Assembly (NCBI GenBank): GCA_037379345.1
Contig: CM074517.1
Span: 4,836,001-4,900,000, forward strand
DNA length: 64,000 nucleotides
Source of the DNA: Perna viridis
Lineage: Eukaryota
Direction of reading: 5' to 3'
The translations under genes were made by a program, and so were the position numbers. Below the pieces are notes generated by a model that was given only the letters and a program-made list of their open reading frames with translations, ran no database searches and was not told the origin of the DNA. Below, one piece after another: positions 52,928 through 58,800 of this stretch (position 1 is its first letter; each line of letters opens with the position of its first letter).

Positions 52928-53400
52928 ATGGCAATGTACTGCTTGAAATGCAAGAGGAAGACGGAGACGAATAGTCGCGCCGTGATCACGAGCAATGACG
53001 GACGGCGGCGGCGGAAGGTGGGGACCTGCGCCGAGTGCGGTACGCGGAAGTCGCAATTCATCAAGACGGAGGAGGGCGCCGGACTCATGAATAAGCTGAT
53101 CAATCGGATGCCCGTCGAAATGCATCTGCCTGGGCATAATTTCACCGGTCCGGGGACCAGACTCAGCCAGCGACTCGATGCCGACGTGGTCAAGGCCCAT
53201 CAATCGAGTCGATGCCGCCTATCGCCACGATCTTTGCTATGCCATGCACAAGGATACGGCGCACGCAGTTCGATCTGCGATAAGACGATGCTAGCCTCCC
53301 TCGAAGCCATCCCAATCCCACCGCACGCGAGCGCCTCGAGCGTGGCATCGTCAGACCCATCATCGGCACCAAGGCACGATTTGGGTTGGGCGTGGGAGAG
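52928..53400 (+). pseudogene. Zn-ribbon plus parvovirus-type phospholipase A2 domain (N-terminal part of the integrase unit)
   Basis: YCLKCKRKT..TCAECG; HLPGHNFTGPGT (Ca-binding loop). A shifted frame gives PINRVDAAYRHDLCY (HD dyad), then CDKTML and RERLERGIVRPIIGTKARFGLG. Confidence 0.85.
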
Positions 53401-54331
53401 AAAAAAAGTACGCTGGTCGGACGAGCTAGCCGAAGAGCTGCATAAGCCAGTCCGACGTAAATTTCTGAAGCGTTGCGTGGTGGTAGGTGGGGTGGACGAG
53501 ACCTGGGCTGTCGATTTCGTAGATATGAGCGCCTTCTCCCGCGATAATCGAAGCATCAAGTATCTCTTGAGCATCATCGACATCTTCTCCAAGTACGGCT
53601 GGCTGGTGCCGCTCAAGGATAAGAGAGGCGCCACGGTGCCAGATGCCTTCCAGACCGTCTTCAAGGATCGCACGCTCGAGAAGCTATGGACCGATAAGGG
53701 GACGGAATTTTATAATCGCGAGATGAAGGATCTGCTGAGGAAGCACGACGTCGATCTCTACTCCACAGAGAATGAAGAGAAATCAAGCGTGGTGGAGCGT
53801 TGGAATCGTACCATGAAGGAGAAGATGTTCAAATATTTCTCGGCCAATTCCACGCGCTCTTACCTTCCCGTCCTGGACGATCTCGTCCGCCAGTATAATA
53901 CCACCAAGCATCGACCCATCAAGATGACTCCCACCGCCGCCAGCCAGAAAGAGCACGAGACCAGGGTCTTCTGGGATCTCTACGGAGATCTCCCACCCAT
54001 GGAGCCTTAGCGATTCGACGTGGGAGATAAGGTCCGAATCACCAAGATGGGCACCTTCGAGAAGGGATATACTCCGCGCTGGACGGAGGTCTTTACCATC
54101 GCCCATGCCCTAGCGACGCAGCCACCCATCTATCGCCTCAAAGACTACGACGGTGAGGAGATCCAAGAATCCTTCTACGAGCCCAAGCTCCAGCGCACCG
54201 ATCAGGATATATATCGCATCGAGAAAATCTTGCGTCGGCGCATCCGGGATGGGACGAAGGAAATCCGCGTCAAGTGGAGAGGCTATCCCAAAACCTTTAA
54301 TTTCTTGATCAAAGAGTCCGACTTGCAATGA
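53401..54331 (+). pseudogene. int: Retroviral-like (rve) DDE integrase with C-terminal chromodomain
   Basis: AEELHKPVRRKF, WAVDFVD, IDIFSKY, LWTDKGTEF and VVERWNRT (D,D,E intact). One in-frame TAG at 54008-54010, then FDVGDKVRI..FEKGY and chromo-like YRIEKILRRR..VKWRGYP. Confidence 0.92.
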
Positions 54332-54538
54332 TCCTCAGCAGGCTTTCCGGTCTCGATCAAAGGAAACAAGAAAGTCTTGATTTACGCATGATTCAGCTCG
54401 ACGAAGACCCTTAATGCGTCCAGATCCGCCTGCAGCCGATCGTGAAGGGCTTTGGTGATAGCCCTGGGATGGGATGGGCATCCGCACCCGTCAGAACCTG
54501 CTAAATGCGGGATGGGCATCCGCACCTCTCAGAGCCTG

Positions 54539-57500
54539 CTAAGTGCAGAGGGGTGGTGGGGGACCTCGGTCGCGGGCGATTCCATAGTGTCCGTGGGCGA
54601 GGGTGCTGATGCCGCCCGGGAGGATGTGGCGCTTGTCCTTTTTGGCGGAGAGAGCGATCTTGTTGATCTCCGTGTAGATCTTATGGAAATGGTTCCGGAT
54701 GATATTCATCGGACGGTGAATCTCCTGCTGGGAGTCGAGGCATCGCTTGTAGTCCTCGAAGGCGATGCTGAGCTTGATGACGCCCTTGGTGACTCTCTTC
54801 GCCTTCTTGGTGGTCTCGTCATCCCCTACCTTGAAGGCGTATAGCTTCGCTCGTAGCGCCACGTATTCGGTCATGGTCTTGCCGCCGCACTCGTCCTTGA
54901 ACATCCCGATGATCTTCTTATTCACGCCGGTGGGGATGCCGGAGGGATGCTCGGTGGGGTAGTTGGACGTATCGAATTTTTCCTGTAGCGCGATGTCTTT
55001 GTAGAAGTCGGCGGTCTGGATTTCATAGGCCAAGCTGTCTGTGTCGGAAAAGAGCAGCCGGGCCTTATCGCCGTACGTCTTCCTCACGAATCCGTAGTGG
55101 AAGTCGTACATCAGGAGCTTCGAGATATCCAAGATGCATACTCCTAGGTAGATGGGCTTATCAAGCTTCAGCTCGGTCTTTTTCATTTGGACGGCTACCA
55201 AATTCTCGGTGAAGACGACGCGGCGATCGAAGTTGGGTTTGGCCACGAGCTTCAGGGCCTGCTTCGCGGTGGTGACTAGCATGACGTCGACGCGCTTCCG
55301 GATATTTTCCATCGTTTTGCCGAAGACCGAATTATTCATGAGCTTGAAAAAATCCTTCTCGGAGTCGGTCTTGGCCGCGGCTCGAAGCTTCGTATTCGGC
55401 TCGATATACGACTTGAGCCAGGGGGATTGCCTGAACACTATGATGCGATGGACTTTGACGAGCTTCATGCCCATCGATAAGTAGAGCTTGAGATTTCGAT
55501 AGTGGAGGGCATATTTTTCGCGCTTGCCTAGGTCAGGCACGAGCTGGTTGTGTGCCGCGCCCCGATACTTACCGGTGAGATGGTCGTGGTCCCGGACCTT
55601 ATCCCCATTCAATGCGCCGCCGCAGATGTGGCAGTGTGTGCTTGCTTCTAAGCTCTTCTTATCATCGTCGCTCATCTCCATCGGCTTCTTCTCCCTGCAT
55701 ATCTTGCTGATCGCTCGCACTTCCTCTTCGATGCACTGCCCAAATTTCTTGGCCGCATCCTCCCCGCAGTAGACGACCGATTCCTTGTAGTTGCCGTGGG
55801 CATACTTCACGCGATAGCAGAAACCTGATGACCGGTGCTGCTGATACTGCTTCGTGTAGGACTTGGTCGGGTCGGGCCGGCAGGTATCGATCTTCTCCGT
55901 GAAGCACTCACAGTCCGCGTAGAACGCGAATGGGACTCTCATCTGCTTCTTGTCATTGTGGAAGGCTATGGTGGATCCTTCTTCCGGCATCTCGATCCTG
56001 ATCGCATCCTTCTGGCTGCAATATTCCATCTGGTCGTCGAGAAGGTCCTGTCTGGCGAAGTGGTAAAGGCATCTGCGGCAGAAGAAGAGCCCATGACCAT
56101 GCTCTGAGATTTGTGAGCTCAAAAGGCGTGATAAGCTCCTGATCCAGCAGTAATGCTGCTTGCCTTCGCGGGTCAGGAAGAGGAGATCTACGTGGGAGGG
56201 GCCCGTATTCTTTGATATCCTGAGGGGGTAAATCTGGACATCCTCTTCCTCATCTTCACCCTTCTTTACGCCATCGAAGCCTAAAACGTTGACGTTGATG
56301 TTGGGGTTCTGCCTCTCGAATTTATCCATTGCCTTAAGTGAGACCGGGAAGTCGACGCCTTCGAATTTTAGCTCATCCTTCCATCTCTTGTACTGAGCTA
56401 CGCGGTTTGCTGACTTCTGGTCAACCTCATCGTAGTGTAGGGCTGCCAGCACCGCCCACTGGAAGCAACGATCATCCTCATTTTTCACACTGACGATCGC
56501 CTTCTTTTTCGCGAGTGCCGATGGCGTCGGTATGAAGGAACCCCCCTTGGGCGGCTTGAATTAGTTCAGATGGACTAGCTTATCGAAGCTGCTGAAAGTC
56601 CATCCACTCCCTTCCCGTATGTATCTTGCCATACTTTCCTTGACTTTCTCCATCATTGAGGGGATCTCCAATTCTAGGTCGTCAGATTCCACGATCATTG
56701 CCGTGCGTGATTAGAAGTAGGGGGTGATGTAGGTATTCTCCCCAGTCGCGGGGTTGGTTTTCACCATCTCTGCAAAGAGGACTAAGTGAACCTTCAATCC
56801 CTTCTTTTGAGCGAGCGCGATGATGGCGGTGGTGATGGTTCTCCGACTTACTTTGAGAAATGTGGTCACGTCGTGCGGCTTCACGGGTTCGATGACGACC
56901 GTACCAAATACACCATTCAGAGCTTCCCGCCTATCGGCGACCTTGATCTCATCCTCGAATGAGGCGCTTTTGATGTCCTCTTCCATCAAATGGAGTAGAT
57001 CGTCTCTCTTGAGCTGGGAGTATTTGGTGAGGCCACGATTCTTTGCTAGCGCTTCGAGCTGCTTTTTGCTGAAGACTTCCTGACGGGCAAATTTACGGGT
57101 GGTTTTCTCCTCGATGAGCTTCACCAAGGCCTCCTTGTTCTTCCTACTGACCCCCCTCAGACCCTCATTCTTAGCTATTTGACGAAGGGTCTTCATGGTC
57201 TCTTTTACCACCATCTTACCCTCGACTGGGATGACCTCCTCCTCCTCCTGCTGGCGTGGTTGCCTGCTATGCCTCCAGCAGAGCCATTCCTTCCCAGGCT
57301 TGCTCTTGCAGAACTGCCCCTTCTTTCTCTTGAGTGGGACGCCGCAGGTGGTCTTCTGCTCCCCTGGTTGATGCTCAAATCGCGGCTTGGTTGATTGTGC
57401 ACCGCAATTTTGACACATCTGGGTATGCTCATCCGTCTGCGTCACGTTGGGGTTACCACAGCACTGCCGCTGCCTTTGGGGGTTTGGGGTTGGAGTGGTA

Positions 57501-57679
57501 TTCTCCAAATCTTCTTCATTCTCCAGAAAGAAATCCTGTAAGCGATTCATATTATCACTATTGGATGCCATCCCTTTATTTATTTCAATTTGTGGCACAC
57601 CTCTCTTAAAGGTTTCCTTATCCACATCCCCACTATCCTCAGCTGGGACGACCTGACTTATGCTCTGTACGAAAGCCAT
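54539..57679 (-). pseudogene. polB: Protein-primed family B DNA polymerase polyprotein, with two stops and a large in-frame deletion
   Basis: One reading frame from 57679 to 54539 with stops at 56711-56713 and 56561-56563. Contains GSGW, KNEDDRCF..HYCWI, ExoI YADCE, CHICG..VRDHDHLTGKYRGAAH, KLMNNSVFGK (motif B), FSDTDS (motif C) and KLYAF..KKAK. Confidence 0.93.
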
Positions 57680-57798
57680 AATTCTTGTATTTACCCTATG
57701 CTCAATAGGGATGCCGTCCGTTTGCATTTGGCCGTCGGGGTTGGGGGTTTTATGCAGGATTTCTGCATGTGCGGTAGAATCGGCCTTTTGAAACTACT
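57668..57798 (-). repeat. Right terminal inverted repeat (131 bp)
   Basis: Matches 47040-47170 (5 mismatches); ends ACTACT followed by the TSD GTTTTA. Confidence 0.96.
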
Positions 57799-57866
57799 GT
57801 TTTACTAAAATATTACGATTTAGTTTAAATTTTAATTCTTGTAATACATTTAATCTTTGCATGCAT
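57799..57866 (-). mobile_element. Upstream continuation of the same LINE remnant
   Basis: RLNVLQELKFKLNRNILVKL joins in frame to Y*SYIRPLLEY once the element and one TSD copy are removed. Confidence 0.8.
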
Positions 57867-57899
57867 GATACTTTTGATACTTTTGCTCGGTCGTCGTTA

Positions 57900-58800
57900 A
57901 CTATGACGTAATTTTTTACATCATTTATGGAGCCGACGAAATTGTCTTCGGAATCAGAGACAGAGTCTATCGGAATATGATAGTTCTGACCATGGAAGTG
58001 ACTCGGAAACTAACATAGATAGCAGTGACGATGACGATCAACCGACAGACATCCCTGTTATCAGCAGAATGCCTTGGTTGAGAGTAATGCCACTAGAAGA
58101 TGATGATGAACCTGAACAGTTCACAGAAGTAGGACCAAAGATTTTACCGGAGACACACAGAAAGCCAATTACCTATTTCTTTTAATGATGACTATGGACT
58201 TCCTTAGAAGAATTGTTACAGCAACGAACAGATACGCATTGAACTGAAACTTTATAATATATATAGTTCGCTTTTTTCCGTATTTTACTCTTAAATTTTA
58301 TAAACTTAGAACTACATCATGATATAATCGATGCTGCATTATTGGTGGAAAGTTGGAGAAATAACCGAGACCCAAATAAAGCGTTTCTAGAAGTAGTTTT
58401 CAATACGAATTTGATTAGAAAAGCGTCAGTAAATGAATGTTGGAATAAGATTCATAACAGTCACGAAACGAAATGGTTCAGGAAATGTCTTCAGTCGGAA
58501 TCGCTTTCAATTGGTATTGATTTTTGTTCTTTTCGTTGACAATAACACTTTACCCCAAAAGAATGACGACAATTTTTCATCAGCTGATAAATTTCGATGT
58601 CTTGTAGACCATTTTAATACTCAACCCATGGAACATTTAAACACATGAACACATGCTTGACCCGGAAAGCAGGAGTGTAATGTTGTTCAGATAGATACGG
58701 GATCGGAGGACGGCACAAATCACGAACAATGTGTAAGCACTGTAAGAAAGGTGTTCATAAGGATTGTATCGTCAATCATATGTATGTACCGGAAAGTAAA
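57900..58800 (+). pseudogene. piggyBac (PGBD4-like) transposase remnant
   Basis: Acidic N-terminus, PITYF..DFLRRIVTATNRYA, VFSRNRFQLVL..VDN..KFRCLVDHFN, and Cys-rich C-terminal CKCC..CKHCKKGVHKDC. Most of the catalytic core is missing. Confidence 0.7.

Follow-up and report, generated by a model that had tools for sequence, protein, structure and literature searches.

A gene for a zinc ribbon and a parvovirus-type PLA2 phospholipase runs into an integrase frame across a run of seven A's in a 64,000-nt stretch of Perna viridis DNA (contig CM074517.1, positions 4,836,001 to 4,900,000; the window, to which the coordinates below refer). The locus raises the question of how the integrase is made: as a plain fusion to the phospholipase whose frame has been lost in this copy, through a shift of frame on the A-run during expression, or from a start of its own. 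A sequence-only reading had proposed a polyprotein, possibly made by ribosomal slippage in the manner of Gag/Gag-Pol. Comparisons with related loci and proteins indicate that the shift at the A-run is a real and widespread arrangement in a Polinton clade and that the window copy is a decayed instance of it.

The host element and the junction of the window copy

The locus sits inside a 10.8-kb (10,759-bp) Polinton/Maverick with terminal inverted repeats (TIRs) and a 6-bp target-site duplication (TSD). Its features are as follows.

47034-47039, left TSD, 6 bp, identical to the 6-mer at 57799-57804
47040-47170, + strand, left TIR, starting AGTAGT, 131 nt, 96% complementary to 57668-57798
48187-48731, - strand, core-protein-like gene with GxG repeats, in two frames (tblastn of L089 and L090 ORFs)
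48736-49500, - strand, probable penton (minor capsid) gene, 38-50% identity to L090 and L089 ORFs
49518-50760, - strand, double jelly-roll major capsid gene, broken (PF21738 on two fragments; several tblastn frames)
52168-52914, - strand, packaging-ATPase-like gene, broken (split ORFs; 44-49% identity to P-loop ORFs of L090 and L089)
52920-52930, + strand, AT-rich start motif and ATG of the Zn-ribbon/PLA2 gene
52937-53059, + strand, DUF5679 zinc ribbon (PF18930, E=1.8e-9)
53108-53391, + strand, PLA2 domain of parvovirus type with a C-terminal helix ending FGLG; three frame changes interrupt it
53401-53407, + strand, A7 run where PLA2 and integrase join, +1 class in the window copy
53405-54331, + strand, rve integrase lacking an ATG, with a chromodomain at its C-terminus and a premature stop at 54008-54010
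53443-53445, + strand, stop codon that closes the last PLA2 frame and with it the short product
54539-56947, - strand, family-B DNA polymerase gene, broken (34-58% identity to a 1320-aa polymerase-like ORF of L090)
57668-57798, - strand, right TIR, ending ACTACT
57799-57804, right TSD, 6 bp, matching the left copy perfectly

Polintons/Mavericks have TSDs of 6 bp, and the element shows this hallmark together with the (AGT)2 TIR ends, the rve integrase, the family-B polymerase (PolB), the ATPase and the double jelly-roll capsid gene. The (AGT)2 terminal motif is named in a passage of PMC8097293. The polymerase and the ATPase were assigned by tblastn to ORFs of two long viral contigs, L089 and L090, and PF03175 gave no match in the window. 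Pfam gave no match on the probable penton, whose name we assume from its position and the usual gene order. The L090 homologue of the core-protein-like gene has a weak Adeno_PX match below the cut-off; searches for a pX-like C-terminus gave no Adeno_PX match on P0124, P0225 or the L090 PLA2. No adenovirus-type cysteine protease was found in the window, neither as a Peptidase_C5 match among the 70 ORFs scanned nor as a tblastn match with the L090 protease. The C5-like L090 protease matches 20 of 80 related loci, where it adjoins the integrase unit. L089 resembles the window element in yielding no protease match, and a 6-kb contig (L040/L041) carries two inverted copies of a PLA2-integrase-protease unit. 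In the ESM Atlas, a 466-aa cluster with rve and chromodomain aligns by structure to the C5-like protease model, a hint that other elements may have the integrase fused to a protease. For the N-terminal OTU-like domain of adintovirus PolB, for which Starrett 2021 relied on HHpred, no OTU Pfam match was obtained.

Open frames run out of both TIRs with the same starting peptide (47045-47491 on the + strand and 56711-57793 on the - strand), and the left frame, of 148 aa, is positioned like a small ORF near the end of L090. AT-rich motifs of the type TATAAA(T)AAATG stand directly 5' of gene starts at 52920-52930, 51251, 48731 and 57571 in an element of 54% GC. These motifs resemble the late promoters of cytoplasmic DNA viruses, and a link to poxvirus late promoters is a possible lead; the terms 'promoter' and 'TAAATG' do not occur in PMC11296320, consulted for it. 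The start ATAAATG/ATAAAATG is unique within 47000-58000 and belongs to the Zn ribbon, whose ATG is immediately preceded by AA or AAA in 38 of 47 related loci.

Reading of both frames across the junction bore out the earlier description. The last PLA2 piece reads ..FGLGVGEKKSTLVGRASRRAA* and ends at the stop 53443-53445, and the integrase frame reads KKVRWSDELAEELH, passing through the A-run, which is the sole run of six or more A's (A6+) within 52901-54400. The earliest ATG in 53380-53540 lies at 53525, 3' of the first Asp of the rve core, so the integrase has no ATG or ATAAATG of its own before that residue, as had been claimed. Pfam places the rve domain at about 53498-53761 (PF00665, E=3.1e-8) and the chromodomain at about 54212-54301 (PF00385, E=4.7e-6). 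Both PLA2 motifs are present but in different frames; PF08398 matches on the intact relatives P0124, P0133 and P0225 support the parvovirus-type identity of the domain. GxG motifs, of the kind put forward in the sequence-only reading as candidate cleavage sites (GAG|L and GLG|V), recur behind the Zn ribbon and at the end of PLA2, in an element in which no protease gene was found.

The 360-aa ORF at 52928-54010 matches DUF5679 and rve but has no PLA2 Pfam match. As the sequence-only reading had supposed, it is open only through compensating indels: tblastn against seven in-frame relatives placed frame changes near 53186, 53260 and 53311-53320 and at the A-run, and the ORF stays open because these four changes sum to zero. 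It ends at the premature stop 54008-54010, a point absent from the earlier reading, with the chromodomain following downstream in the same frame. The window copy is thus a decayed member of the +1 class, with four frame changes and one stop. Since it carries three frame changes besides the one at the A-run, as well as a stop, this copy alone proves nothing about recoding.

Sister copies differ from the window at 54008-54010, both in their contigs and in six of six RNA reads, and the sister-copy contigs from two runs show junctions in all three phases. Of the 4 and 47 RNA reads found in two runs, only 5, from sister copies, cross the junction; they show no indel or joint row and are too few to judge slippage. 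The reads of both runs, including all 47 of run X22 in 52850-54400, have the first mate on the + strand. If the library is of the common stranded type, the X22 reads would be RNA antisense to the integrase, perhaps read through from the polymerase gene.

Frames and A-runs at the junction of related loci

Related DNA loci were retrieved by the integrase alone. The best 80 of 297 confirmed loci plus L001 were taken, and 77 were scored after one duplicate and three loci with no PLA2 tail (L010, L053 and L079) were left out; the rows of L002, which lacks the integrase N-terminus, and of the duplicates L083, L084 and L041 were dropped. Within this set, which is the best 80 of 297 and consists of non-independent loci, 57 of 77 loci have PLA2 tail and integrase in different frames across the ~40-nt junction. 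In comparison, a frame change inside the ~300-nt PLA2 domain was found in 13 of 60 loci. Further scans of viral contigs gave no additional junction.

The phase of the junction differs between unbroken and broken loci. No other break is visible in 24 loci (15 complete, 9 cut by a contig end), and the junction is -1 in 16 of these, +1 in 4 and in frame in 4. The 53 broken loci divide into 15 -1, 22 +1 and 16 in frame, a different distribution (Fisher p=0.002, with loci that are not independent; p=0.004 after removal of one 31-locus family). When clustered at 80% identity, unbroken members fall into 12 clusters, 10 of which hold -1 junctions; seven are -1 only, one is +1 only, one is in frame only and three are mixed, each with -1. 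Loci in which the neighbouring ATPase is intact too show 7 -1, 2 +1 and 2 in-frame junctions, and the junction is also -1 in the 15.6-kb contig L090, which has long open frames along its whole length. All three phases coexist within single families. The claim that the shift is more than a private decay indel therefore stands for the unbroken relatives, of which 20 of 24 are shifted, although the window copy itself cannot show it.

The A-run is concentrated at the junction. Runs of seven or more A's (A7+) occur there in 19 of the 24 unbroken loci, compared with 6.9 expected for these residues at the same codon usage. The remainder of these genes contains 3 (4 with a wider upstream border) versus 21.2 expected, and A8+ runs number 0 versus 12.8 expected, in a comparison in which the choice of unbroken loci favours genes with no long runs. 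The depletion grows with run length and covers out-of-phase runs as well. A-runs are not depleted in the remaining genes of L089 and L090 (18.9 kb), with 4 A7 runs versus 2.7 expected, a comparison of low power. In 18 of the 20 shifted unbroken loci, the overlap in which both frames are open contains an A6+ run. Two of the 16 -1 loci are exceptions: the integrase frame of L001 opens only behind the runs, and L071 has no A6. Several in-frame loci carry only A2-A5 at the junction (L021, L073 and L080), and several -1 loci have just A6-A7, a length that is short for efficient polymerase slippage.

In 18 of the 20 shifted unbroken loci, the first catalytic Asp has no ATG before it, none of the 20 has a pyrimidine-rich acceptor, and the N-terminal Trp of the integrase is retained in the shifted frame in 19. 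These observations support the earlier proposal that the Zn-ribbon/PLA2 gene and the rve-chromodomain integrase are expressed as one unit from a single start, as far as can be judged from the loci compared.

Protein collections contain both products. A search with the 360-aa ORF, a query biased to fused proteins, returned 120 matches, of which 72 combine the two PLA2 motifs with the start of the integrase in a single chain. In-frame Zn-PLA2-rve(-chromodomain) proteins are many and measure 460-490 aa. Of the 13 proteins in the cluster closest to the window, 6 are fusions, 5 consist of the integrase alone and 2 of PLA2 alone; among the matches listed, fusions make up 10 of 15 in the P0104 cluster, the remainder being fragments, and 6 of 7 in the P0105 cluster. 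Some lineages are simple in-frame fusions whose runs are short, and since in-frame lineages exist, the fusion is an encodable product. A simple fusion throughout, which the protein search first suggested, was reversed by the integrase-anchored DNA set, the query having favoured fusions. The in-frame intact copies that the sequence-only reading had named as evidence against a shift do exist in part, in these 72 matches and in lineages such as the P0104 cluster, but most unbroken loci are shifted.

Stand-alone Zn-PLA2 proteins form large clusters (2359, 1462 and 462 members). Read by eye against DNA-calibrated examples, 14 of the 15 tails listed for the largest cluster are of the -1 type, and likewise 14 of 15 for the second largest. 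In three clusters of the window's clade, the 26 tails among the matches listed comprise 14 -1, 10 +1 and 2 others. A scripted tail classifier was not used, having called 18 right, 9 wrong and 26 uncertain of 53 loci of known phase. A search of 50% representatives returned mostly short stand-alone PLA2 proteins and was not counted, as fusions may cluster with integrases. Two proteins with the source name Mytilus galloprovincialis (P0217 and P0223) join the Zn-PLA2 to the chromodomain with the integrase core missing, perhaps through internal deletion or as an artefact of the gene models. Distant Zn-PLA2 or PLA2 genes on two further contigs (L085:8001-8504 and L086:1069-1356) end after a GxG motif with no integrase behind them, so that the short product also occurs independently.

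Expression of the integrase

Recoding at the A-run, by the polymerase or by the ribosome, is the reading that we favour, with a probability of about two-thirds. Within it, transcriptional slippage of the polymerase, giving much Zn-PLA2 and little Zn-PLA2-integrase, is held tentatively, at somewhat short of even odds. The integrase of most lineages lies out of frame, usually by -1, behind a run of 6-12 A's. By transcriptional slippage, the majority of messages would be translated into the short Zn-PLA2 of about 160-185 aa, the presumed entry protein of the virion, and the minority on which the polymerase had slipped would give the 460-490-aa Zn-PLA2-integrase fusion, which could bring the integrase into the particle.

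The same arrangement could arise with no recoding, if the gene were a plain in-frame fusion in active genomes, with a hypermutable homopolymer whose length changes in DNA, through decay after insertion or phase variation in replication. The in-frame fusions in many clusters, including the P0104 and P0105 clusters and 6 of the 13 proteins closest to the window, are consistent with this, as are the three phases among the sister copies of the window and within single families; -1 is also the first state reached when an in-frame run shrinks by one step. However, the least damaged loci are mostly -1 (16 of 24, and 7 of 11 with an intact ATPase), and a purely harmful run should not persist at one site across lineages while A8+ runs are absent from the rest of the gene. 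The constitutively fused loci also tend to have short runs. We regard a hypermutable run, the main rival to recoding, as a rather unlikely explanation. The integrase might also be made separately, from a non-AUG or re-initiation start, from a promoter of its own in the A-rich junction or from a spliced message. The junction does resemble the A-rich motifs before gene starts, an in-frame ATG lies near it in L008 and in L038/L090, and a near-cognate codon precedes the conserved Leu in 8 of the 20 shifted unbroken loci. Such codons are not conserved, however, nor is a start codon of any other kind; the first conserved ATG is behind the first catalytic Asp, the ATG of L038 has a conserved Trp upstream of it, and the missing acceptors argue against splicing. 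A separately made integrase is improbable.

The choice between ribosome and polymerase turns on the heptamers, the RNA downstream and the phases. A programmed -1 ribosomal frameshift at A_AAA_AAN, or ribosome sliding on AAA codons, would agree with the dominance of the -1 state and with the in-phase X_XXY_YYZ heptamer found in the open overlap of 12 of the 16 unbroken -1 loci, compared with 29 in 9800 codon positions elsewhere; L013 and L019 have a classical A_AAA_AAC with six A's only. However, almost any A7+ run will contain an in-phase heptamer, L036 and L038 have none, and other slippery heptamers are not depleted in these genes (21 versus 24.5 expected). Folding of the downstream RNA, which had been proposed as a check, revealed no conserved 3' structure in 15 loci (mean z of +0.20 and +0.12 in a pseudoknot-free model), whereas canonical -1 shifts have a stimulatory structure 5-9 nt downstream; in the window z was 0.82 over 83 nt and -1.97 over 50 nt. 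In addition, four unbroken loci and the window are +1, and the occurrence of both phases in the window's clade counts in favour of the polymerase. Gag-Pol-type ribosomal slippage as originally put forward is thus not supported, given the +1 phase of the window, the -1 phase of the common state and the lack of a conserved stimulatory structure in the folds made, and ribosomal frameshifting in general seems unlikely. The lack of 3' structure, the length-dependent and out-of-phase depletion of A-runs and the +1 junctions together favour the polymerase over the ribosome.

A broader form of the slippage reading covers a widespread clade of animal Polintons. The ratio of phospholipase to phospholipase-integrase would be set by transcriptional slippage on the conserved A-run, and the fusion would serve to package the integrase, with release at a GxG site in those elements that have access to a viral protease. 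A DNA virus would then have arrived on its own at a solution like Gag/Gag-Pol, and its lineages would alternate between a gated and a constitutive fusion. As a combination of these steps it is possible but somewhat doubtful.

Were transcriptional slippage correct, many integrase annotations regarded as 'broken' or N-truncated would be intact recoded genes, and counts of intact elements would be too low. A group of animal DNA viruses would join the known users of homopolymer slippage, and a route of the integrase into the particle would be provided, as in mavirus. The natural cassette is short, which would make the question testable with a reporter.

Comparison with known systems

Retroviral Gag/Gag-Pol comprises an abundant structural protein and a rarer, C-terminally extended form that bears an rve integrase. 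The arrangement described here would be similar in having a rare long form with an rve integrase. However, no conserved stem-loop was found, +1 and in-frame variants occur, and the carrier is a Zn-PLA2 rather than a capsid precursor.

The closest relatives in gene content are the Alpha adintoviruses and Polintons described in part of Starrett et al. 2021 (PMC8502044), which share the AGTAGT TIR ends, PolB, an rve integrase with a chromodomain, the ATPase, the double jelly-roll capsid and a PLA2 gene with the window element. In that source, the PLA2X of Alpha adintoviruses is treated as a separate gene that ends in a pX-like part, and the single map row found does not show it adjoining the integrase, whereas PLA2 in the window is directly upstream of an ATG-less integrase, fused or shifted. 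The window copy also differs from the adintoviruses of that source in having no protease gene. In the portion of PMC11071296 consulted, -1 shifts were predicted with KnotInFrame in the adintovirus Penton and Hexon-Adenain only; recoding has thus been proposed within the same virus group, but for other genes, and the term 'PLA2' is absent from the main text. Such a junction is unmentioned in the passages of PMC5803895, PMC11296320, PMC3671162, PMC11131425 and PMC8097293 covered here. A PLA2-integrase fusion or shift is undescribed in the open-access literature searched, and the A-run arrangement apparently has no earlier description.

Its proposed elements have separate precedents in the parts of the literature covered. 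Capsids of mavirus contain packaged integrase (PMC6428243), and transcriptional slippage from A9 to A10 yields about 15% dystrophin (PMC12946587). The gating of orfB behind orfA in IS elements and transcriptional slippage on homopolymers are described in PMC1088944 and PMC5009743. As described there, the IS elements are alike in that a recombinase with no start of its own is held low behind an A-run. In comparison, the element described here is an animal DNA virus-like element, and the upstream partner of its integrase is a presumed virion protein.
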